Assembly (NCBI RefSeq): GCF_004010195.1
Contig: NC_057719.1
Coordinates: forward strand, 60,866,809-60,930,808
Direction of reading: 5' to 3'
DNA: 64,000 nt
From: Chiloscyllium plagiosum
Taxonomy: Eukaryota
Below are positions 7,734-45,237 of this stretch, piece by piece (within the stretch, counting starts at the first letter, position 1; each line of letters starts with the position of its first letter). A program made the translations under genes and the position numbers. A model generated the notes under the pieces. It was given only the letters and a program-made list of their open reading frames with translations. It ran no database searches and was not told where the DNA came from.

Positions 7734-8133
7734 AACATTTGAATCCAAAGATTGATTAGAATTGTGACTTTCCCTTTGAAGTTGGTCCCATCATGCCCTA
7801 AAATGGGATTACTTTCAAATTTCCCACAAATAATGCAAACAGAAAGGATTGATTCCCTAAGTGATGATTCTCACAAAAATACAGCGACCAACTGAATTAG
7901 AAATTCAATGTGAAATGTGAGATGTAGTTAAGTTTTGATAAGTAGCAAATAGATGAAGCCGCCCGGAAGAATATCGTACAGAAATTGTGGGAAGTAATTA
8001 GCCATGATGAAACTAGCCAGCAGGCCAACAACTTGTCATGGCCCAGAGGGCCAAACTGGCAAAACCCAGGCAACCGCTAAGTTAATCAGCTGACTGAGGC
8101 AAATCATCTAAAGAGTTAGGGGGTAGTTAAGAC
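7734..8133 (+). repeat. About 400-bp direct repeat, copy 1 (copy 2 at 10465-10856)
   Basis: Colinear match, e.g. CCAGCAGGCCAACAACTTGTCA and AAAACCCAGGCAACC shared. Confidence 0.9.
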
Positions 8134-10464: not shown

Positions 10465-10856
10465 AACATTTGAATCCATAAATTGATCAGGATTGTGACT
10501 ATCGCTTAAAAGATGTTCCAATCCTGCCCTAAAATAGGAGTATTTACAGATTTCCCACAAACGATGCAAACAGAAATAAATGATTCGCCTTGTGTGAATA
10601 TTTACAGAAAAATACAGTGAGCAACTGAAATAGAAGTTCAATGTGAGATGTATTTAAGTTTTAATAAACAGCAATAGATGAAGCAGCCCTGAAGAATTTC
10701 ATGCGGAAATTGTAGAAGTAACTAGCAACAATCAAACTAACCAGCAGGCCAACAACTTGTCAAGGTCCAGAGGACCAAACTGGAAAAACCCAGGCAACCA
10801 CTAAATTAATCAGCTGATCTGAGGCAAATGAATTAGAGTTAGAGGATAGTTAAGAC
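10465..10856 (+). repeat. About 400-bp direct repeat, copy 2
   Basis: Matches 7734-8133. Confidence 0.9.
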
Positions 10857-20685: not shown

Positions 20686-20841
20686 TGCAGTGATTGCAAC
20701 AAGGTCCAGGTGAATCTTATTGACTAAGAGATCTTTGATTGAGGTTGTTAACCTCAGTCAATCAGACAGCCCTGGCTGACAGATATAAACAGGAGATTCA
20801 GAGTCTGCTTAATTTAGGGGACTGACTCTGTGCTGGCTGGT
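20686..20841 (+). mobile_element. Gypsy 5' LTR (U3 and TATA part), interrupted
   Basis: TGCAGTGATTGCAACAAGGTC...GTTAACC...CAATCAG..CCTGGCTGACAGATATAAAC aligns with the reverse complement of the LTR at 40652-40887. Confidence 0.85.
20784..20789 (+). promoter_or_regulatory. LTR TATA box (TATAAA), downstream of a CAAT-like box
   Basis: CAATCAG at about 20759, TATAAA at 20784 inside the LTR. Confidence 0.6.
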
Positions 20842-21200
20842 GTTATAGTCAGTATGTCACTGTTTATTTCTGCTTCTCTTTTTTGGGAGGGGGAAAACCT
20901 GATTTCTGAACTGGCTGAATTATTTAGNNNNNNNNNNNNNNNNNNNNNNNNNNNNNNTTGTCTGCACTTTTGTATGTAACGGTATTGTCTAATGTATAAA
21001 TGTCATTGTCACTGTCTTGTCATATGTGGAACTGGGATTTGAGGTTTGTCCTCCTCTCCCTGTAAAATGGTTGAACAGTAGGGTTCGGGGCCTAGCTTTG
21101 CTGCTCCTCTCCCTTGTAAAATTGCTGTCTTTTGTGTACAGCTGTCAATGTTTTTTGTAAACTGTTTTGTAATTTGTTTAATAAAATTAAAAAAAAAAAA
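20789..21200 (+). mobile_element. Tx1-like non-autonomous unit 1 (interrupted by N gap)
   Basis: 5' end matches units 2 and 3; 3' end matches 22720-22935; AATAAA at 21180 followed by poly(A). Confidence 0.75.
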
Positions 21201-22943
21201 ACAGGAGATTCAGAGTCTGCTTAATTTAGGGGACTGACTCTGTGCTGGCTGGTACTATTGCCAACATGTTACTGTTGGTTTCTGCTTTTTTTTTTGGAGG
21301 GGGAAACCAGATCACTGAACTGGCTGAATTATTGTTAACTGGCATTCCTCTTAGTGAAGACTAATTGTTAAACTCCTGATGCACATAATGTGTTTCAGGT
21401 GTAACTCAGTTGTCATTAGAGGATTGTTGTTTCACTGGCTGGTTACAGCCTGTGTTACTCTTTTCTCCCTTTTTTTGAGAAAAGGACAATGTTAATTTTG
21501 TGGTGGGGTTTAGCCCTTGGACTCTAGGTTTTATGTGTCTTCACTTTTTATTGGTGTTTTGGACTGAGCCCTGTGGAAGACGTACATTTTACCAGAGGAG
21601 CTGTTCCTTGGGGAGGCCTAGCCCTGGGACTGGGCCTCTGAAGATTGAACACCTGTGTGTGCTGGGACGTGAGCAGTTGCTGTATCCTGGAGTTTAGCAG
21701 CAGACCTTTCCTTCATGAGTAGACCAAATCCCTGTGAGTGTACTATGTTCCTGTGAGTGGGCCTAGTTTTCCAAGGCTGGGCCAGGACTCCATGGAGACT
21801 GAGCACCTGTGGGGTGTGCACTTGCTGCCTTCAGGAGTGGACTCTGCCTGGAAATGGATTCTATATGTTGAAGACTGCATAGATTTGGACTGTGTACCAG
21901 AAAGGACTCTGTTTTTTGGTAACTAACTGTATTGTGGTGTTTCCTGGGTCTATCACCTGCACTGTCTTGTGTCCCTGGGTCTGGCAGACCTTACAGTGAG
22001 CTGGGAAGCTCATGGGTCATCCTGAAAGCTGTCACCCTGAGCTGGCGGGTGGGTCGACCATCCTGTGAACCTGAAGGTTGGTAGGCTGTCCCAAAAGCCA
22101 GCAGGTGGATAGACCACCCTGATGCCAGTTGCCCTGAGCCAGATGGTGGGTAGGCCATTCTGAGCACTGCCCTGAGAAGGGGTAATTGGGACAGGCTGTC
22201 CTAGAGGTGGTCGAAAGGTGTCAGAGCAGCTGAGCACCAGAAGGTGTGTAGGGGCGGGCTGAGATCCAGAAGGCTTATGGGCTACCCTGCACGCTGCCTT
22301 CCCAGGGAAGGGGATGGGCTGTTCTCGAGGTGGCTGGAAGGTGTGCCAGGATAGCCCACTGGCCGGATGGCACATTGGGGTGGGTGAGAGCCTGATGGTA
22401 CATAGGGGCAGACCGAAAGCCAGAAGGTGGGTAGCCATCTTCAGTGCGTTACCCCAGGCAGGTACCAGGGTGGGCTGCCCCAGAGGTGGTTGAAAGGTGC
22501 CGAGGGTGGTTAGTGAAGCCGGAAGGTGGGTAGGCCATCCTGACTTCTGTCACCCCGGGTGGGTACTGGGGCGGGCTGTCCTACAGGTGGTTGAAAGTTG
22601 TCAGGGTGGACTGAACTGGAAGGGGCATGGGGTGGACCGAGAGCCAGAAGGTACGTAGGAGTGGGCTGCCTTAGAGTGGCTGGAAGGTGGGAGGGACTGG
22701 GGCTTGCTGGGTCTGTACTGTATGCACTTTTTATATAACTGGATTGTCCTTTTTTATGTACAAATGTCACTGTCTTTTATGTGAAACTGGAATTTGAGGT
22801 CTGTCCTCATCTCCCTGTAAACTGGTTGAATGGTAGGGTTTGGGGCCTAGCTTTGCTGCTCCTCTCCCTTGTAAAATTGTTGTATACAGCTGTGAATATT
22901 AACTTTTTTAAACTTTTGTAATTTGTTTAATAAAATATTATAA
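21201..22943 (+). mobile_element. Tx1-like non-autonomous unit 2 (complete, about 1743 bp)
   Basis: Starts with the LTR-derived ACAGGAGATTCAG; degenerate FLLVFW...GLVFQGWAR..SMETEH..AAFR resembles the Tx1 ORF2 C-terminus (compare 59140-59830); internal repeats; AATAAA at 22929. Confidence 0.75.
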
Positions 22944-23981
22944 ACAGGAGATTGAGTCTCCTCAATTTTGGAGACTGACTCTGTGCTGGCTGGTGTTAGT
23001 CAGTATGTTACTGTTGCAGCTGGTTTCTGCTCCTTTTTTCTGGGGTGGAAACCTGATTCCTGAACTGGCTGAATTATTTAGCCAGTTTAACTGGCATTCC
23101 TTTTAGTGACGACTGATTTTGTTAAACTCCTGATGCACCTAATGTTTCAGGTGTAACTCTGTTCTCATAAGGGGATTGTTGTTTCACTGACTGGTTACAG
23201 CCTATGTTTCTCCTTTTGAGAAAAGGATGTCAATTTTTTGTGGTAGGGCTTAGCCCTTGGACTTTGTTTTTTGTCTGTGTCTTCACTTTTTATTGGTGTT
23301 TGGATTGAGCCCTTGTGGAAGACATACATTTTTCCAGAGGAGCTGTTCCTGGGGGAGGCCTAGCCTTGGGGCTGGGCCTCTGAAGATTGAACACGTGCTG
23401 GGAAGTGAGCACTTGCTGTATCCTGGAGTTTGGGTGAAGATTTTCCTTTGGCAGTGGACCAAACCCCCGTGAGTTAACTGCACCTGTACTATATTTCTGT
23501 GGGTGGGCCTGGTTTTCCAAGGCTGGGGCAGGACTCCATGGAGACTGAACACCTGTGGGGTGTGCATTTGCTGCCTTCAGGAGTGGACGCTGCAGTTTGG
23601 TGTGGTCTCCATGTTGGACAATGCACCTCAAACTGGAGTGGACTCCATTTCTGGGAATAGACTCTATTTAGACTATGTACCAGAAAGGACTCTGTTCGGT
23701 TTTTTTGGTAATTAACTGTATATTTTTTTGTTGGGTCTACCACCCGCACTCTTGTGTCCCTGGGTCTGTCAGGCCTTGCTATGAGCTGGGAGGCTCATGG
23801 GTCATCCTGAAAGCTGTCACCCTGAGAGCCAGAGGGTGGGTAGGCCATCCTGTCAACCTGAAGGTTGGTAGGCTGTCCTGAAAGCCAGAGGGTGGTTAGG
23901 CCACCCTGATGCCAGTCACCCTGAGAGCCAGATGGTGGGTAGGCCGTTCTGAGCACTGTCATCCTGAAGAGTAATTGGACA
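22944..23981 (+). mobile_element. Tx1-like non-autonomous unit 3 (3' truncated)
   Basis: Colinear with 21201-22190; ends abruptly at Gypsy pol. Confidence 0.8.
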
Positions 23982-25860
23982 ATGTAGAACTTAGTGTTTC
24001 CTTTTGGTTGGTGAATTATTCTAGGAAATTTTATGTAACCTGGCCTCTAGCAGATGTATGGGTGTCAAGTTAATGAAAAAGTCAGCCTTGGAAATGATGT
24101 AGCTATGAAGTAGCTTTTAGTGAAGTGAGAAAACAGCTATCACCATCTAAGGTGTTGGTGCACTAAGCTACCAAATGAGAGATGGTGTTGACATGTGATA
24201 CCTCCACATAGGGTATTGGGTAGTGTTGGCTCACCATATGCCCCAACCATGCATGTTTCCTGGGTTTTAGCTGATTCTGAATGCAAATACACCTAGATGG
24301 AGAAGGAAAAGTTGGTGGTCATTTTCGTGAGTAGGTTCTGTCACTATCTTTCATAATAACTGACCACAAACCCCTGCTAGGGTTACTTGAATAAGACCAG
24401 GCTGTGCTGCCCATAACTTCTCCTCAAATTCAACAGTGGACCCTGATCTTCAGTGTGTACAATTACAAGTTGGAACACCACCCAGGAGGCCAGGTAGCAA
24501 ATGCCACCAGTAGTGCCTCCCTGGAAGAATCCATTCTAGTTTTTAAATTTTCTGAACACTCTTTTTCTGGTCACCATTGATAATATCTGACTGTGGACTC
24601 AAAGATTTTGTTCTGGCAAAACTAACACAGCTTGTGCTAATAGGGAAACAAAAGGCCCAGCTCAACTGGAATTGAAACCTTTCTGAGCATGGTGAGAACC
24701 AGGTCACCGTGGAAGTTGGCATTTTATGGGGAGCAAAGGTGATTGTCCCAAGTGTATGTCACTGTCTGATGCTGGCTGAACTCCTCCAGGGTCTTTCAGG
24801 GGTTTCTGAAATGAAAATAGTGGCTAGAGGTTATGGCTGGTGCTCAAGATTGGATGCTAAGATGGCTGCACTGGTTGGCAGTGTCCAGAGTGCCAATAAG
24901 TACAAAACATTACCACCATATTCATGGTAATGGCTAGGTAAACTCTGGACTCAGTTACACTGACTGTGCCAGTCCTTTCATGGGCTCAATGTTTTTGGTT
25001 ATTATGCATGTCCAGCCAAAGTCATTGGGTGTGAACAAGGTTCATTCAGCAAATTTGGGGATAATGACTGAAAAGCTGCAATTGTTCATGATACAAGGAC
25101 TTCAGGAAGTATTCATCAGACAATGGGATGTCATTTTCCAGCTGGGAATCTGAATATATCCTAAGTTGAATGGTATTTAGCATAATTGGATGATTTATGG
25201 TATGGAGCTGTCCAATGGTCTGGCAGAAAAAGCAGTCCAACTGTTGAAGACAGGCTGAAAGAAAAACCCATGGCTTCATTCGACTCCAAACTGTCTCAGT
25301 TCCTGTTTGATTATAGGACCACCCTCGTGCAACTACAGGAATAGCTCCAGCAGAGTTGCTGATGGGAAGAAGACTCTGCATGTTAAATCTGATATTGCCA
25401 TACCTGGAGTGGAGGGAGAAACGGCAGCAGGAAGCCAGTGCTGGCCACATACCACCTCTAAATGAGACGGTTTGGTGTGGAAACCATGGGAAAGTTCCTA
25501 CAGGGGTGTGAGTTGATGTCGATGTGAGGTCATGTCCTGTGACATACAAAGGATCACCTGAAAACTGCTACCATTCAGAAAGGCTGTCAGAAGCATGGGC
25601 TCGCTCCCTCCGTCTAGCATCAAAGAAACCTCAGAGTCCAAGATGGATGCAGCCTTGATACTGTTACTTCCTGCAGAAGAGAGGAGGAAACTCTCCCAAG
25701 ACATTCCAGGTTCAAGAGATGGGATGCAGCTTGATACATGCCACCTGTATCTCAGTCAGAGGAACTGGGTCTCATCTTAGGAGAAGCTAAAAGAAAAAGA
25801 ACAGGACCATATGCCTAGACTTTCATTGGCTGTCCTGACAAGGATTAGCAGACTTAGAGG
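23982..25860 (+). mobile_element. Gypsy pol remnant (RT end, RNase H, integrase), K02A2.6-like family
   Basis: LTCDTST.GIG.VLAH; ITDHKPLLGLL; ASPFMGSMFLVI; LSQFLFDYRTT; TGIAPAELLMGRRL; many stops. Confidence 0.88.
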
Positions 25861-26139: not shown

Positions 26140-26450
26140 AATTCCATGAAGGGTTTCTCTCCATGAGATTTAGCATGATTTCTCATAGCATTTTTCCAAA
26201 CTGGCATGATTACTTATGCACCATGCTAAAATGGGAAACCATCCATCATATCTCCTTACATGCAGATGTACTTACCACGACCAGGACCAAGGTAGATGTT
26301 CACCAGTTGTACACCTATAAGTCTGGAACTGCCTTTAATGCCTCCTGTTATTTGCCTGCACATGGTGACAAAGGCAGAACTTGGTCTGTCACTTGGAACT
26401 GGAAGCACTGGTGGATGGGTGATACAGAGGATGGTTGTCCCCTTACCCTA
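26140..26450 (+). mobile_element. Possible Harbinger transposase N-terminal remnant
   Basis: Frameshifted SYMQM motif, V.QLY and LP.HGDKGRTWSV resemble the HARBI1-like N-terminus; weak. Confidence 0.3.
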
Positions 26451-27763
26451 GGACTTGTAGAGGAGACCACAACACCAAATCCTGCTAATCTGTTCTGAGT
26501 TTGTTGCCTGGCGCAGTGCAATAGCCACGATAGGCTGAAATGCTCAGCAATGCCGAAAGAAAGTCAAAGACATTCCCTGCTCAATTTATCTCTGTTATTA
26601 CACAGCTTTCTCACCCAAGGTTTATGTTTCTGCCACTCTCATTGTTACATGAAATAGGATCCTTCACTTGCTTTCATCCATCCCAACATCCACTATTCAC
26701 TGTGTTGCCTACTCACATATTATGAACATCACAAGACCTTCTCCCACAGCAGCACTGGTACATAGTTTTCCAAGCAACTTTCATCTCAATCTACTCTTCT
26801 AATTGTCATTCCGGGAAAGAAAAAGTCCTCAATAGGATAGAGGGAGTCAGAATGGGTGACGGGTTGCCAATATTCAGCTGCTTAACCCCTACAAGGAGAG
26901 GATCCTGGCCCTGGCAGGTGAGGACTGTGAGGTTTTGGTGTCACCACATGAATAACCAATGTCTCAGCAACCAAGTAAGAATCCATGTCTATTGCTGCAC
27001 TGCTCTCCCCTTAATGCTACTGTGAATCTATCCTTAACATACCCAATCTTATACTCCTTCACATTCTTGTCTTTTGTTGTGTTCTCCTCTGCAAGTCCTG
27101 GGGCAAGGGGACACCCATTCTCTCTATCATCCATCCACTAGGGCCTCCAGCTCCGAGTGACAAAGTAAGATCTCCCTTTGTCTACCATGTCTGGGCAAAT
27201 AACAGGAAACATTAAAGGCAGTTCCAGACTAACAGGTGTACTGGCATCTGCATGATACCAAAAAAGACCCAGATGGTGGAGGAGCCACACACAAGCCTCC
27301 CAGAAACTTCCTCTGAGGTCAGGCCTTCCATCTTCACCTTAGCTGCTGCCCTGAGCTCTGCCAGTATTCAAGTGAGGGAAGGTGCACCTATCTCTGGGTA
27401 GGACACACACACTCAATATGTCTGAGCCCACAAATCACAATGCACCCAGGAGCAACAAAGCTCCAAGACCAACTCCAAACCAAGACTATTGGCAAGCTCC
27501 CTCCAATCAAATTGCAGACCTGAGGACTGTATCGAGATTTTAATGGAAAGATAAGCATACAGTATTCACTTTTGATCATCAGCTGTATCAGTGAATAACT
27601 TTCTCGATGCAACTAAAAGATTAAAGGTAATGTGTCTTGCCATCTTTAGCCTAACACAATGTTGTGTGGCCCAAGGTGTAAAGTAAGCAGCATTTCATCC
27701 ATGTAGACTGTGGGATATTGGAAGACATTGACCTTGGTTGCCAAAGCAACAATCTTCCCAGGC

Positions 27764-27946
27764 TAGGGGAAAGTGAAGACTGCAAATGCTGGAGATCAGA
27801 GTAGAGAGTGTGTTGCTGGAAAAGCACAGCATCCGAGGAGCAGAAGAATCAACATTTCAGGCAGAAGCCCTTCATCAGGAATGAGGCTTGTATGTTGGGG
27901 CTGAGAGATAAATGGGANNNGGGGGGGGGGGGGGGGGGGGGGGGGG

Positions 27947-27993
<47 letters not shown>

Positions 27994-28853
27994 AGGTAGA
28001 TGGGAAAGCAATAGGTGGATGAAGGCGAGAGAGAGAGTGATAGATCAGAGGGGGAAGTGATGGACAGGTCCAGAGGGTGGTGCCGAGTTGGAGACTTGGG
28101 AACGGGGATAATCTGGGGGGTGGGGAAATGAAAAAGCTGTTGAAATCCAGATTTATCTGGTGTGGTTGCAGGGTCCTAAGGCGGAATATGAGTCGTTCTT
28201 CCTCCAGGCGTCGGATGGTAATGGTTTGGCGGTGGAGGAGGCCCAGGTTCTGCATGCCCTTGAAGGAGGGGGAGTTGAAGTGTTCAGCCACGGGCAGTGG
28301 GGTTTGTCGGTGTGGGTGTCCCAGAGATGTGCTCTGAAATGATCCGCAAGAAGGTGTCCTGTCTCCCCGATCTCAAGGAGACCACACCAGGTGCAACGGA
28401 TTGTACAGGTAAATTTCTGACGGATGTGGAAGAATACTTTGGGGCCTTGGACAGAGATGAGGGGAGTGGTGTGGGCACAGATTTTGTACTTTCTGTGGCA
28501 GGAAAAATAGATAAAGTCCCCTGGGCCTGATGGCATTTATCCTAGGATTCTCTGGGAAATGTTCTATGAAAAGGTGCCAGGAGTGGGGTGTGGACTGGTG
28601 GGGGTTGTGGACCTGACGAGGGGGTCACTGAGGGAATGGTCTTTCTAGAATACTGACCTGATGACCTATCACCTTCTCCCTCACCTTCATCCACCTATCG
28701 TTTTCCTAGCTTCGTTGCTCCCAATCCCACCCCCCCCTCCCATTTCTCAGCCCTGACCCACAAGCCTCATTCTTGATGAAGGGTATCTGCCTGAAATGTC
28801 GATCCTTCTGCTCCTCGGATGCTGCCTGACCTGCTGTGCTTTTGCAGCAAATC
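27764..28853 (-). mobile_element. Penelope-like element 3' part (GIY-YIG endonuclease) with inverted pseudo-LTR ends and 15-bp TSD
   Basis: CTWCGLLEIGETGHLLADHFRAHL...AEHFNSPS...RRLEEERLIFRLRTLQPHQINLDFNSF; inverted ends; TSD ACAATCTTCCCAGGC at 27749-27763 and 28854-28868. Confidence 0.92.
27848..27879 (-). ncRNA. Minimal hammerhead ribozyme-like core in PLE pseudo-LTR
   Basis: CTGATGA-A-GGGC-TTCT-GCCT-GAAA-TGTTGA on the minus strand; mirrored degenerate copy at about 28771-28803. Confidence 0.55.
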
Positions 28854-35049: not shown

Positions 35050-35256
35050 TTAAAAAAATCACACAACACCAGGTTATAGCCCAACAGATTTATTTGGAAG
35101 CACTAGCTTTTTGAGCACTGCTCCTTCATCAGGTGTCACCTGATGTAGGAGCGGCGCTCCGAAAGCTAGTGCTTCGAAATAAATCTGCTGGACTATAACC
35201 TGGAGTTGTGTGACTTTTAACTTTGTCCACTCCAGTCTAACACCAGCACCTCCAAG
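35050..35256. mobile_element. PLE-derived palindromic element with degenerate hammerhead cores and 12-bp TSD
   Basis: Inverted arms centred at about 35136; CTGATG(T)AGGAGCGGCGCTCCGAAAGCTA; TSD ATTGATCATAGT at 35038-35049 and 35257-35268. Confidence 0.85.
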
Positions 35257-35889: not shown

Positions 35890-36720
35890 AGCATCACTAG
35901 CTAGATTGAAATTTAATACCTGTCCCTAGTTGCCCTTGTAAAGGTGGTGGTGAGCTGCCTTCTTGACTCTCTGCAGTACATATGCTGTCAGTAGATCCAC
36001 AATGCTATTAAGGAAAGAATTCTAGGATTTTGACTATATGATACTGAAACAACAATATATTTCCACGTCAGGATGGTAAGTGTCATGGAAGAAAACTTGC
36101 TGATAGTGATGTTCCCATTAATCTGTTGTCCTTGATCTTTGTTGAATTTAATCCACAGCTGACACTTTCAAGGTCACCTGTGATTACTTCTCCTTCACAA
36201 ATATGACTATGATCAATCTTGGAAGTGCTGGTGTTGGACTGGAGTGGACAAAGTTAAAAATCACACAACTCCAAGTCATTGGTTTGGGTTTGGTAGGGGG
36301 TGTCTAAGGATCTTTGGTGAATTTCTGCAGTGCACCTTGTTCATGTTACACATTGCTACTAATGAGTGTCAGTGATAGAGGAAGAGTATGCTTGTGGATG
36401 TGGTGCCAATCAAACAGGTTGCTTTGTCCTGGATGGTGTCAAATTTCTTTAGTGTTTTTAGGCTGTAACCATTTAGGCAAGTGGGAATGCACAATCACAA
36501 TCTTGATTTGTGGCTTGTCTATTGTGGGTAGGTTTGGGGGAGACAGGAGATAAGTTACCCTCTGCAGGATTCCTAGTTTCTGATCTGTTCTTGTAGCCAC
36601 TGTATTTCTATGGTAGGTCCAGCTCCATTTCTGATCAATGGTGACTACCAGGATGCTGATAGTGGGGGATTCAGTAATGGTAGGGTGATTAAATGTTAAG
36701 GGGTAGTGGTGAGATTGTCA
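35890..36720 (-). mobile_element. LINE 3' portion (same family as 16390-17256)
   Basis: Reverse complement of AAGGCAGCTCACCACCACCTTTACAAGGGCAACTAGGG tail; interrupted at 36137-36273. Confidence 0.8.
36137..36273 (-). repeat. Inverted copy of 35201-35337
   Basis: Near-identical reverse complement that includes the unique flank beyond the TSD. Confidence 0.9.
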
Positions 36721-36724
36721 GAGA

Positions 36725-39700
36725 TTGTCAGAGACTTCTTTGATGCTAGACAGAGGGCAGGATGACCCACAGGTTCTGACAGTCTTGCTGGATGTTCTGA
36801 GGGGCCTAATATGTTTTGCTCCTGCCCTGTTTGTGAGGTTGCAGCTTTCATATGGTCCATGTGCTTGTTCAGGATCTCTTCACATACTTGAACTTTGTAT
36901 GTCACAGAACCTAACCTTGTATTGACCAGGCCTCTTACCATTGCAGGGCCAATTCCATGGTATTGACACCAACCCTAGTCCCCTGAAGTAAACTGCCTCT
37001 CTCACTTAGAGGAATCTTCTATCCGGCAGTGGTGTTCCTGATACTTTTTCACCTTCAAGGTCCAAGAAGATCAGATTTAACCTGATGCTGAATCTTCTCA
37101 CCATTAGCAACTCTGCTAGAACTGTCCCTGTAGTTGCATGAGAGGTGGTCCTGTAATCAAACAGGAACCAAGACAGTTTGGTATCAAATGAAGCTGTAGG
37201 CTGTTTCTTTAAGCCTGCTTTCAAAGTTTGGACTGCTCATTCCACCAGAACACTGGATAATAGATGGCATGGAGCTGTCTGAACATGCTGAAAGCCATTC
37301 GACTTGGGGAAATAAACAAATTTCCTGGTTGGTAAATGTTCCCTTTGTCTGGAACCAACATCGCTAGGAGTCTATGTAATGCAAAATATGCTTGCAGCTT
37401 TTCAGTTGTCTCTGTGTTTGCCAAACAACCTCTTTGCACATCCAACTACTTTGAATGGGCATCCACAATGTCTAAAAATATACAGCCTATAAAAGGACCG
37501 GCATAGTCAACATGTCATTGAGTCCAAGGTTTATCCAGGCATTCAAACGAATGTAGGGGAGCTGCTGGTGGTGATTTCTGTCCTTTTAGGCACTCTGGGT
37601 ACTGACCCACAAATGCAGCTATGTTGGCATCCAATCCTCGTCACCAGACATTACTTCTCTTCAACATCTTCATTTGGAAGTTCCTGGATGACCCCAGTGA
37701 AGTTGAGCCAATATCTGGCAGCAACCTTTGCTTGAGCCAATCACTCTTGTTTCCCATATTGACATGCTGTTCTCTATGGTGATCTCATCTCATTAAGTCC
37801 AGAAAGGTTTCAATTCCAGTTGTGATAGCTCTTTTGCTTCCGCCATCATCCACGGTATTTTACTTTTGCAGGATGGGATCTTTTTGTGTCCACAGTCTGA
37901 TGTTGTCAGCAGTGACCAGAAGTGTGTTCAGAAAGTTTAAAACCAGAACGGACTGTTGCAGTGGCGGCACAACCGGTGGCGTATCCATCAGTGGGTGGTG
38001 TCTCAGGGCATCTGCATTTCCCACCTGTCCTCCCAGATGTTGTTACAACTTGTTACTGTATGCGCTCAAATAAAGAGCGGAATGCTGAATTCAGCCCGAA
38101 GCTATAGGCAACACAGGCTTGTCCTCTTTAATTTGCCACTGACGGGTTTGTGGTCTGTTACTATTACAACTTTATGTCCATAATGCATTGGTTGAACTTT
38201 GTCACACCAAAAATGACTGCTAAATCTTCCTTCTCCATATGGGCATTCCTTCATTCAGCACCAGCCAAGGTCTGGGACGTGTCTCCATTGGGCCATCTGT
38301 GAGCCAATACTACCCTGATACTGCCTGGGAAGCATCGCATGTCAGCACCACATCTCGCTTGGGATCATAGTGTGACAATACCTTAGATGGTGATAGCTGC
38401 TTCTTAACTTCCCTAAAGACCACATCTTGGCTACAAGACCATTTTCAAGCCTGACCTTTTTTCAGTAGGAACTGTACGGGTGCCAGGATGTAGACCAGGT
38501 TACGTTTGAATTTTCTGTAATAATTTGCCAACCCGAGGAAAGACCTAAGCTCTCGTACAGACGTCAGAGCTGGGGCACCTTTGATCACCTTCATTTTATC
38601 TTCCAACAGGTGTAACCCAGTTTTGTCAACTCTGTAACCCAAGTTGGTCACTTGGGGTGCCTGGAACACACATTTTCCCCTCCTAAGTGAAACCCCTGCC
38701 TTAGAGAAAGGTTTAAGCACCATGTCCAGGTTCTCTAAATGCTCTTTACTGGTCTTCCAGTTATTAGCACGTCATTCAGATAAATAGCTACCTGAGATAG
38801 ACCTTGTAAAATGTTCTCCATCATCCACTGCAAAATGGCACAGGCTGATGATACCCCAAAAGGCAATCTCCTATGTTGTACAAACCCTAATGAGTAGTAA
38901 TTGTAGCACACTTCTGGGAATCCTCATCTAATCACAGTTGCAGGTACACATGGCTCATGTGCAGTTTCATGAAGGACAGATGCCCCCGCCAACCCCCACT
39001 GCTAGTTTTAGTTTTGCATACAAGTCCTCTATGTGAGGGATTGGGTATTTATCCAGATGTGAAAAATGGTTCGCCTTTTGTTTGAAATCTCCGCAAAGGT
39101 AAACTGACCCATCATTCTTCACAATTGGTATGACCAGTGCAGCCTATTCCACAAACTGTACCGGTTTGATGATTCTTTTATTTTCCAGCCTCCAGATTTC
39201 TGCCTCCATTTTAACACACAAGGCAAATGGCACTGGGTGGACTTTGCAGAATTGTGCAATTTCTTCTAGGTCAACATGTCAGGTGGCCTTGGCCCATTTG
39301 ATAGTCCCTAGACCTCTGGGTGAAATCTCTGGTATTTACTCTGACTTCACTCAGGCAGCCATTTTCCAGTTAAAAAATGTTGAACCAATCAAGTTGAATC
39401 TTTCTCAACCAATTTTGCCCCATTAAGCTTGGGCCCAAGACTTTCACTCCAATCAGTAGTAACTGAACCAGCTGCTTCTCATATGACACCGGAACCAATG
39501 TTACACTCTTAATCAGTAAAGGTTCCCCAATATAGGTTCTCAGCTGGACGAGGTTTTATGCAGCCGAAGGGTTGGAGTCAGAGTGAAGTTCAATAAAGAC
39601 TGGTTCTGCAATCACTGATGCAGCTGCGCTGATATCAACTTCCATTAGAGCTGGGTGACCATTTAACCAGATATTTATTTTGATGGTTCTGATATGGGTG

Positions 39701-40887
39701 TTGTTAAGCAATTTAACTGTTACTAACCAGGCATCAGTGAATTTTACAGGGTGTGCATTCTCATGGATATCAGCCTATGAATTCTCTTACACAATTTAGG
39801 CTCAGTGGGACTCTTTTGTTGTCTCGAGTCAGCATATCGGCAGCAACTACAATGGTCTGCTGGTCTGGATCCTGGAGAAAGTTTTAACCGTTTGGCTGAG
39901 GCTTGGCTTTGTTTTGCAGTTTTGCTGTAGGCTGACCTAGAGTCCCTCTGTTCATCACATATCCTGAATGCAGCTGTGTAACTGCCTTCAGTCAAGTGGT
40001 GTTCCTGAAACTCAATCGGACTGACAAGAGTGTCCACTTCCATGGGCATACTTGTAACTTATGAGCTCCATTTGCCGCAATTTCTAATGACAAAGCCACT
40101 TATAATGCCTGCTTGAAGTTCAGTTGGGCTTCAGCTAGCAGACACTTTTGCATGGTCACATCATTAATCCCATATACCAACTGGTCTCTTAGCATCTCAC
40201 TTTGGTTAAAGCAAAATCACACACCTCTGCCAGTCATTGTAATCTCACCAAAAATCCCGATACAGATTCTCTTGGTTCTCAAGCTATCCAGTAATTCCGA
40301 TAGCATCTCATAATTAGAGGATGCTAGAGTTTGCCATATTCCTTAGCTAAAGCTGTCAATTCTTGAAAGATTTTAGTATCTGCTGCCTTTGGGAAAGTTA
40401 AGCTTGTAATAACCAAAAAAGTTGCACGTGCACACACTATCAGGAGAATTACTCGTTTTTCCTCTGTCCCAATGTCATTTGCCTGGACAAAGTAATACAT
40501 TTTTTCCACATGCTGGGCCCAATCTTCAATGGCAGGATCAAACAAGTCAAGTTTTCTAAGTAGTGGCATCATGCCAGAAAAGCTTCCCCCAATTCAAAGA
40601 CAACTGTTGCAAATGAATCTCTTAAGGGGCGTATTTTCCTCTTGTCACCACTGAAATAACTCCATAAAGGCCAGTTTCCCATCACCAAGTCGCCCTTTAT
40701 TTTTGCATGCCTAGTACAAGACACTGAACCAGTTTGCACAGAGCTGGCTCCTAGAGAAGCAGGAACCCCTGACAGTCTTGTGTATATTTGTCGGCCAGGA
40801 CTCCCTGATTGGACCAGGTTAACAGCTCTAGTCAGGGAACACATTTTCAAGGAGATCCACCTGACTGACATTGTTCCAATCACTACA
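36725..40887 (-). mobile_element. Gypsy LTR retrotransposon (5' LTR, PBS, gag, protease, RT, RNase H, integrase), degenerate, 3' LTR missing
   Basis: gag MPLLRKLDLFDPAIEDWAQHVE; RT KCVFQAPQVTNLGY..ELRSFLGLANYY; IN LSWFLFDYRTTSHATTGT.LAELLM. Confidence 0.92.
40652..40887 (-). mobile_element. Gypsy 5' LTR (TGTAGTG...TATTTCA) followed by degenerate PBS TGGTGACAAG
   Basis: TG...CA ends, CCAAT, TATA-like box, AATAAA; PBS resembles TGGCGACGAG (complement of the tRNA-Ser GCU 3' end). Confidence 0.85.
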
Positions 40888-42899: not shown

Positions 42900-43335
42900 A
42901 AAAACTAAATGCTGGAAATTTAAAACAAGAACAGAAATTGCTGGAGAAACTTAGAAGTCTGGCAGCATCTGGAGAAGGAAAGCAGAATTAAATTCTTCAA
43001 TAAAAGCAAATTACTGCAGATGCTGGAATCTGAAACTAAAAGAGAAAATGCTGGAAAATCTCAGCAGGTCTGGCAGCATCTGTAAGGAGAGAAAAGAGCT
43101 GATGTTTCAAATCTAACTGACCCTTTGTCAGCTTTGACAAAGGGTCAGTTAGACTCGAAACATCAGCTCTCTTCTCTCCTTACAGATGCTGCCAGACCTG
43201 CTGAGATTTTCCAGCATTTTCTCTTTGGGTTAAATTCTTCGAAATCAGTTCTGAAGAAGGGACACTTGTCTGAAATGTTGACTCTGCTTTCTCTCCAAAG
43301 AACTCCCATACCTGCTGAATTTCTTCAGAAGCTCT
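42900..43335. mobile_element. Nested PLE-derived elements: young palindrome (42999-43229) inside an older copy
   Basis: About 190-bp near-perfect hairpin at 43038-43226; TSD TTAAATTCTTC at 42988-42998 and 43230-43240; HHR-like CTGAAGAAGGGACACTTGTCTGAAA at 43251. Confidence 0.85.
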
Positions 43336-44565: not shown

Positions 44566-45060
44566 GTCACATTTGAAACAGGAATCAGAATAAGAGTTTG
44601 TAATATTATTTATCACAGTATTTATTTTCACACAATTACCAAATAGGCATGGTAATGGAGAGTTACTAGTAACTGCAGGACCTTAGTAGTTTTAGGATTA
44701 ATTTGGAAAAGACACCACAGTATCACAGATTTACTGCTTCCAGAATATCCAACACCTAAGATTATGGTAGCTGTTAAAATATCTTATAGTGGTTTAAATT
44801 GTTGATATCCAGCTGGCTTTGTATTGATATTTTAACAAGGGATTAAAGCAAAGATGTAAGGAAGTGAATCATATTTCTGCAAGCATAAACAAAGAAAGCA
44901 CAAAGCCAGTAAGCGCTTAGTTCTCTTTTAGCTGCAACTCCCAAGTCAGGATGTGGCTCTTACCTATATGAGGTGACATCATGCTTAATATGGGAAACTG
45001 CTACTGCATGTAATGTTTGCCAACTCTTATCACACAGTATTTGATAACATAGACTTGCAC

Positions 45061-45237
45061 AAAGTTAAAAATCACACAACACCAGTTTATAGTCCAACAG
45101 GTTTAATTGGAAGCACGAGCTTTCGGAGCGCTGCTCCTTCACCAGGTAGTTGTTGCACTATAACCTGTTGGACTATAACCTGATGTTGTGTGATTTTTAA
45201 CTTTGCACACCCCAGTCCAACACCGGCATCTCCGAAT
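45061..45237. mobile_element. PLE-derived palindromic element (same family as 35050) with TSD
   Basis: AAGTTAAAAATCACACAAC...GTTGTGTGATTTTTAACTTT; TSD CATAGACTTGCAC at 45048-45060 and 45238-45250. Confidence 0.85.

Follow-up and report, generated by a model that had tools for sequence, protein, structure and literature searches.

The closest described relatives of the arrangement reported here come from crocodilians, in which there are Tx1 families that prefer LTR retrotransposons (Kojima 2015, PMC4494074). By the rule used in that paper, an element is target-specific if more than 20% of its flanks are of one kind. For Tx1-8_Crp and Tx1-4_AMi, its main text mentions neither where in the LTR they insert nor a 5' head derived from it, and describes no rider. 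SINEU-3, also from crocodilians, resembles the retroposon unit examined here in that it is non-autonomous, has no tail in common with a LINE, is inferred to ride a Tx1 LINE into a transposon target, forms tandem copies around a duplication, and is excluded as a Pol III transcript; transcription from the flanking target has been proposed for it (PMC4494074). However, SINEU-3 is short, derived from U2 and directed at Mariner-N4, whereas our unit is about 1.9 kb long, begins with a head of post-TATA target sequence, and is directed at the core promoter of an LTR (PMC4494074).

Drosophila R1 likewise forms tandem arrays by insertion into the 5' duplication, with duplications of 14 bp, and target sequence on its RNA ends pairs with the target (Stage and Eickbush 2009, PMC2718515). 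R1 is autonomous and targets 28S rDNA inside the transcript, whereas the unit is non-autonomous and its cut lies upstream of the presumed start. In addition, the 5' target sequence of R1 is from upstream of the cut, while the head of the unit copies sequence downstream of it (PMC2718515). R2 and R2/R1 SIDEs are also non-autonomous, site-specific and promoterless riders of a site-specific LINE, but they arose from their partner by deletion, keep its 3' end and have a ribozyme (PMC3414825), whereas the unit has no sequence in common with the LINE that presumably moves it. In Xenopus, the Tx1L target is Tx1D, a piggyBac-type DNA transposon (PMC4494074), rather than a Gypsy LTR. The likeness to Tx1L is that of the presumed driver and not that of the unit: over 508 aa, the ORF2 of the driver shares 55% identity with the 149-kDa protein of Xenopus Tx1. 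There are also models of 5' junction formation (PMC6895275), and transcription of HeT-A arrays is driven from upstream (PMC5537684).

Work on crocodilians and Drosophila R1 has therefore already described Tx1 elements that target LTRs, riders that are non-autonomous, and tandem arrays. The new part is the presence of LTR-derived heads on two unrelated elements, the unit and a Tx1 LINE. Our literature search, with Repbase, Dfam and subscription journals outside its scope, returned no report of a shark Tx1 element that targets LTRs or of an LTR-headed rider.

The window is a stretch of 64,000 nucleotides from Chiloscyllium plagiosum (contig NC_057719.1, positions 60,866,809 to 60,930,808). It carries an array of three units with the following features.

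20686 to 20788, plus strand: 5' half of a Gypsy LTR (U3 up to the TATA box), subfamily A, by alignment.
20784 to 20798, plus strand: target site, made up of the TATA box, ACAGGAG and 2-4 more bases; this stretch is duplicated on insertion.
20789 to 21200, plus strand: unit 1, with its head part to 20927, a 30-N gap at 20928-20957, AATAAA at 21180-21185 and an A-run.
20789 to 20843, plus strand: LTR-derived head of unit 1, with the post-TATA spacer, a predicted initiator (TCAGT, +23 to +27) and the start of the LTR leader.
21201 to 21255 and 22944 to 22996, plus strand: heads of units 2 and 3, counterparts of the unit 1 head.
21201 to 22943, plus strand: unit 2, near-full and non-coding, with AATAAA at 22929-22934 and the fixed TATTATAA end.
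22944 to 23978, plus strand: unit 3, the 5' ~60% of a unit with its 3' end lost (profile positions 1-1130 of 1894).
23986 to 25635, plus strand: decayed Gypsy pol from the end of RT onward, by homology to the in-window Gypsy.
36700 to 40887, minus strand: reference copy, a related Gypsy with an empty LTR at 40652-40887 (subfamily B), identified by comparison of its RT with Ty3.

Alignments and coordinates agree with the first-pass annotation that a Gypsy LTR is interrupted after its TATA box and that three colinear units follow. TATAAA lies at 20784-20789, and the units start at 20789, 21201 and 22944 with ACAGGAG at each. This word had been taken as the repeated target; it is indeed present at every unit, but it is not the whole of the shared sequence because the first ~55 nt of the unit also correspond to LTR. 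The period of 1743 bp given by the annotation is one spacing only, since unit 1 holds the 30-N assembly gap, and a typical full unit is ~1.9 kb. Likewise, AATAAA and an A-rich tail had been assigned to units 1 and 2. Unit 1 has a true A-run, but unit 2 ends in TATTATAA with no A-run. There is an ~80-bp internal deletion in unit 2, the middle of which is a G-rich minisatellite.

The LTR 5' half matches the in-window LTR at 71% over 112 nt by BLAST, with 78 of 99 aligned letters the same, and its 40 best genomic matches (self excluded) are at 82-91%. Unit 3 lacks a tail, and the Gypsy copy has lost gag, most of its RT and the 3' half of the LTR; thus the right edge is a deletion rather than an insertion junction. 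Gypsy pol of the same family had been said to resume at 23982. The two are related, but homology begins at 23986, is only 68% to the in-window Gypsy, and joins copies of different subfamilies. The geometry is such that insertion would be expected to disable a host Gypsy, and this copy is dead anyway through deletion and decay. The RT segment of the reference Gypsy matches Ty3 RT with an E value of 7e-11 in a PDB search, and Pfam matches on short Gypsy segments are weak.

We consider it probable that a non-coding retroposon of ~1.9 kb inserted three times independently at the LTR TATA box to give the array, with the endonuclease and reverse transcriptase supplied by a Tx1-clade LINE. A search with the 5' 800 bp of the unit yields 1843 candidates, and the 40 best scored places are 75-86% identical and lie on many contigs; the 3' end yields 2247 genome candidates. 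These are first-look numbers and not copy numbers, and all locus samples consist of the 30-40 best matches of each search rather than random draws. The full unit has 1894 profile columns.

For the 3' ends, 30 loci were fetched with the 3' 246 bp, and 29 of these are distinct. By manual reading, 25 of the 29 ends in this best-match sample lie either at the LTR TATA site or in arrays that contain the target core, one is unclear (L127), and three are off-target (L117, L120 and L128). A regular expression for the target core finds 22 of 29 ends, where 5.8 are expected by chance, and 113 of 122 in a set that is biased by the sampling of unit/LTR junction loci. We prefer the manual count because the expression is too loose. 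The unit is therefore target-specific by Kojima's rule, and the random 3' flanks that the first-pass annotation had named as counter-evidence were not found.

The duplications were read from 18 single truncated inserts that retain both LTR halves, drawn from 30 unit/LTR junction loci. With one mismatch allowed, they are 12-17 bp in 16 cases, 9 in one and 19 in another. They start inside the TATA box and reach about +9 to +12, and locus-private variants are present on both sides. Of 124 sampled copies with a 3' end, 91 are truncated or broken, and 47 of these 91 are truncated copies that start directly behind the target core. Single 5'-truncated inserts of many lengths, each with its own duplication, are found in both LTR subfamilies. 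These truncated 5' ends, the A-rich tail and the duplications establish that the unit moves by target-primed reverse transcription. Thus the earlier description of a non-autonomous, retrotransposed and array-forming element is borne out genome-wide by truncated copies, target duplications and multi-unit loci. Among 122 unit 3' ends, 64 have an A-run, 29 have the fixed TATTATAA end and 29 are of other kinds. The fixed end is TATA-like and lacks an A-run, and it is absent from all 44 LTR halves compared, so the unit's 3' end, too, mimics the target.

Complete LTR-array-LTR arrangements are found at several loci, including L135, L136, L149, L008 and L013. Among 49 heads, 20 adjacent pairs were compared with 1150 between-locus pairs. 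Mean likeness is 0.85 versus 0.78 for +1 to +10 and 0.75 versus 0.61 for +11 to +25 (SD ~0.2), and from +26 on the means lie within 0.03 of each other. Neighbouring units are thus no closer to each other than distant ones, which indicates that the arrays arose by serial insertion.

A-tailed sequences upstream of many units are the ORF2 ends of a Tx1 LINE, and L062, L222 and L225 are long Tx1 copies with ORF1 and ORF2. The ORF2 matches RVT_1 (E 8e-26) and zf-RVT (E 2e-5). The RT part gave matches in a homolog search, while the C-terminal part gave none in a search that was crowded. By similarity ranking, this LINE can be assigned to the Tx1 clade. Its young copies share 93-95% identity, and in a best-match sample about 16 of 27 of their 3' ends are on target, which is less faithful than the unit and yet is above the 20% of Kojima's rule.

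Tx1 fragments interleave with units in mixed arrays. Pieces located 5' of all units have a mean identity of 93.8% to a young copy (20 loci), whereas pieces located 3' of units have 85.0% (13 loci; Mann-Whitney p 9e-5, with four loci in both groups). This age gradient indicates that new inserts join on the TATA side and that Tx1 used the site both before and after the wave of the unit. Other RNAs are also found at the TATA site, including a chimera of 5S rRNA and a SINE, tails of SINEs, and an end of ~430 bp that resembles an mRNA. Such unrelated A-tailed inserts fit a relaxed, tail-independent choice of RNA by Tx1. A site-preferring LINE with relaxed RNA choice may be of interest as a gene-insertion tool, although some 40% of the young copies lie outside the target.

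The LINE likely drives the unit. Because the two have neither a tail nor homology in common, we infer this from site, geometry and timing. A link to Tx1 had been claimed in the first-pass annotation and appears to hold in trans, in that a Tx1 LINE uses the site of the unit, but there is no Tx1 remnant within the unit. Similarly, of the shared tail and target that were to be sought in full-length Tx1 elements, the target proved to be common and the tail differs.

When the LTR 5' half was used as query, its 30 best matches, with the window among them, comprised 15 empty sites, 2 followed by the unit, 9 by Tx1 fragments and 4 by A-tailed inserts of other kinds. With 15 of 30 sampled LTR halves occupied, the TATA site forms a large natural record. 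Occupied sites date insertions by position, would show Tx1 moving unrelated A-tailed RNAs into one site, and offer many junctions for the question of how APE-type LINEs form 5' junctions. These junctions also bear on the transcription of promoterless riders such as SINEU.

The post-TATA sequence of empty subfamily-A LTRs matches the first 42-75 nt of the unit at 80-90% in eight of eight cases, and each match lies above the best of 200 shuffles. Judged by these alignments, the first ~55 nt of the unit are LTR sequence from directly behind the TATA box. When the query lacked the head, 22 of 29 unit 5' ends were found to begin at the target core; among the others, one begins at +24, one has a second LTR head, one has lost the TATA region and four have been replaced by unrelated DNA. 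Full-length Tx1 copies begin with ~75 nt of subfamily-B leader, and in 25 of 30 Tx1 5' ends this leader is joined to the target core, as recovered with a query that contained part of the head. Consequently, a full insertion of either element would restore the TATA box, the spacer, an initiator-like TCAGT word at +23 to +27 and the leader in front of the element, and we take TCAGT to be the predicted initiator. Local LTR variants extend to +26 to +31 in the heads at L135, L136 and L226, and LTR-type letters extend to +45 to +50 at L211 and L251. Where target and head are alike, such local letters are consistent with pairing between cDNA and target.

One possible sequence of events is as follows. 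A Tx1 protein would nick the bottom strand within the TATA box, and its RT would begin priming wherever a suitable RNA offers an A-rich 3' end. The top-strand cut would fall some 9-12 nt past the TATA box, and every target duplication would leave a fresh target for a further insertion. The LTR-derived head might pair the cDNA with the target to give precise full-length junctions. It might also restore the TATA box, initiator and leader, which would allow Pol II transcription in the setting of the LTR, whether started from the TATA box itself or reached by upstream read-through. Read from the DNA copies, the RNA of the unit would carry target sequence at its ends, as described for R1 and R2.

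The present case extends target-specific retrotransposition from transcribed targets (rDNA and snRNA genes) to a core promoter, and two elements have kept a copy of the half that their own insertion cuts off. Perhaps there is a class of LTR-headed retroposons in which a LINE and an unrelated non-coding rider both enter a Gypsy LTR at its TATA box and each bring a replacement for the downstream half of the core promoter, captured separately from two LTR subfamilies. We advance this idea tentatively and give it somewhat less than an even chance. If it holds, the invader would gain a rebuilt LTR promoter with every full insertion, transcripts would stop short of the Gypsy leader, a new source copy would be made, and the rider would be a Pol II 'SINE' with the target's own promoter as its head.

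A serious contender, although one that falls somewhat short of an even call, is that the head is only a pairing aid and a by-product of long target duplications, with an internal Pol II promoter or host read-through producing the RNA and with no role for the LTR promoter. This alternative differs from our preferred explanation on the promoter alone. In six copies that sit in differing LTRs (L008, L011, L013, L133, L149 and L170), the head is of element type from about +8, and L228 is the reciprocal Tx1 case, in which the head is of element type from about +8 in a differing target. At least six donor RNAs must therefore have begun upstream of the predicted initiator. The TATA-to-start spacing is about 25-30 nt, and an RNA started from that TATA box would thus lack +8 to +22. 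Only one of 29 heads (L255) begins at the predicted initiator. Starts at the initiator would be masked where the target matches the head.

Some donors may reach further still. A whole U3 with its flank is found inside the arrays at L019 and L137, and a piece of U3 is found at L143, L234 and L237; the sequences of these five arrays point to either read-through donors or local duplication at a microhomology. Donor RNAs that reach +8 or into U3, together with heads that exchange with local target sequence, favour a pairing role, and cDNA-target pairing has been proposed for both R1 and R2 (PMC2718515, PMC6895275). However, in two unrelated elements, heads have been retained that begin at the cut and take in both the predicted initiator and the leader, each from its own LTR subfamily. 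Furthermore, Pol III can be excluded for the unit because it has no tRNA B box and carries T-runs of 4-10 within its first 400 nt.

RNA reads were collected on L149 from four runs at 85% likeness, and 221 were found in one single-cell poly(A) run versus 0 in its sister run. About 2 in 100 of the reads of the single-cell run were scanned, and most matching reads come from other copies. The reads pile up over the final ~300 nt of the unit in a sense-consistent manner and, in the other direction, near an internal T-run, and they show no start positions. This pattern is indistinguishable from what nuclear RNA would give if oligo-dT had primed on A-runs of genomic origin. LTR-driven transcription of some donors, in line with the borrowing of the TATA box suggested in the first-pass annotation, has about an even chance of being correct.

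A second alternative, which we consider unlikely, is that the unit is what remains, without coding sequence, of a different and older Tx1/L1 family that used the same site and moved the unit by recognising its tail; it would then be a derivative formed by deletion or a long 3' UTR. The tail of the unit is indeed LINE-like (T-rich, with AATAAA and an A-run), the units (75-86%) are older than young Tx1 copies (93-95%), and non-autonomous deletion derivatives of site-specific LINEs are described (PMC3414825). However, a C-terminal ORF2 profile detects no remnant in 22 unit copies (best iE 2.8), whereas it does detect a decayed Tx1 control (0.009). A whole-ORF2 profile had missed this positive control, and the C-terminal profile was used for that reason. 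The longest ATG frame in the 22 copies is 39-94 aa, and they show no ORF1 or ORF2 with an APE endonuclease and RT. Moreover, deletions of 1, 2 and 3 nt number 57, 59 and 24, such that those of 1-2 nt are commoner than those of 3 nt. Among 124 unit 3' ends, all from best-match loci in which a rare partner could be missed, none is preceded by an unknown coding LINE. Finally, the older Tx1 pieces located 3' of units have the ordinary Tx1 tail.

The units had been called Tx1-like in the first-pass annotation, a label that has to be dropped since tblastx, blastn and profiles reveal no Tx1 homology. In tblastx and blastn comparisons with the Tx1 copy L062, the only matches were to genuine Tx1 pieces inserted alongside. 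A DNA profile built from 22 units gave no match in three Tx1 copies or three Gypsy internal regions, and sequence and profile comparison found no tail common to the unit and the Tx1 LINE. The unit is also not a classical SINE, as it has an LTR-derived head in place of a tRNA, 7SL or 5S head and has no partner-LINE tail. Rfam returned no match in the array at E 1 and no ribozyme; outside the array, L214 matches 5S below the threshold, and next to L149 there is a weak match to U6atac. The searches made did not find an origin for the body of the unit.

It is very improbable that the unit spread as a passenger in an LTR element, either as a long LTR variant or as a TRIM-like tandem. The unit does begin with LTR sequence and sits in LTRs. 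However, this possibility is ruled out by the truncated single inserts with their own duplications in both LTR subfamilies, and by the three off-target copies, which have 13-17-bp duplications in non-LTR DNA and therefore mark the unit as independent of LTR amplification. In addition, the unit-unit junctions hold only a tail and the duplication, with no U3. A TRIM or other non-autonomous LTR element was rejected on similar grounds, because there is no whole LTR between tandem units.

Least probable of all is a local tandem duplication, satellite or misassembly at one locus, for which the gap in unit 1 and the private head variants common to units 1 and 2 might be cited, but which is ruled out by dispersed copies with duplications and identical geometry at dozens of loci on many contigs, by the gapped alignment of units 2 and 3 at only 79%, and by adjacent units that are no closer than distant ones past +40. 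The possibility of an array restricted to this place, which the first-pass annotation had raised against itself, can thus be set aside. There is one Tx1 array, at L029, that bears signs of unequal exchange.

Fragments of the Tx1-clade LINE that belong to one array frequently share a common 5' truncation point, as is seen at four loci elsewhere in the genome (L-numbers denote such loci, with their own coordinates):

L146:1921-8342, about 8 copies
L217:2177-4624, about 7 copies
L143:1261-2627, about 5 copies
L084, about 5 copies

These common points may reflect either homology-directed 5' joining to the neighbouring copy or else unequal exchange. A recombinant pattern is found in the Tx1 array of L029.

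There are also Tx1 pieces of two other kinds, both listed for the element strand:

L223, L224, L227 and L228, first 450 bases: body-less Tx1 5' heads
L131:5975-7600; L133; L145:2285-2410; L215:6154-6350: antisense Tx1 3' fragments

The body-less heads (150-200 nt) end in an A-run at a purine-rich stretch, and are likely to be internally primed short copies. The antisense fragments went in off the main site, where either a unit or U3 (the LTR part preceding the TATA box) is rich in T.

About 10 loci carry single inserts of the non-coding unit truncated at its G-rich stretch (unit position ~1480-1490; window 22680-22700). Possible causes are reverse transcriptase stalling at a G-quadruplex or the existence of a short subfamily. 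A unit variant carries a subfamily-B LTR leader before unit position ~28, which is a second head capture:

L141:6390-6510, element strand; L246: unit variant with subfamily-B leader

In addition, a head(1-76)-U3-TATA-head structure recurs on three contigs (L143:2715-2880, L234, L237), wherein the join is a CTGTTAA microhomology.

The LTR site also holds other A-tailed inserts:

L088, minus strand, behind TATA: ~430-bp mRNA-like 3' end
L069:3683-3780: SINE tail
L085:2602-2900: retrocopy of the LTR leader itself
L214:5460-5647: chimera of a 5S rRNA 5' half and a SINE-like 3' part, flanked by the target duplication

Further repeats occur in the window:

35054-35253, 36137-36279, 43034-43231, 45056-45233: short MITE-like palindromes whose inverted arms are long
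26309-27241 and 27827-28824: local inverted duplications, with arms of 58-167 nt at 78-88%
7734-8093 and 10465-10817: two direct repeats at a distance of 2.7 kb (77-88%)

The direct repeats are possibly the LTRs of another element. A 72-nt G run adjoins a 3-N gap (window 27918-27992), and the same MITE-like palindromic family interrupts the LTRs at L093 and L108.
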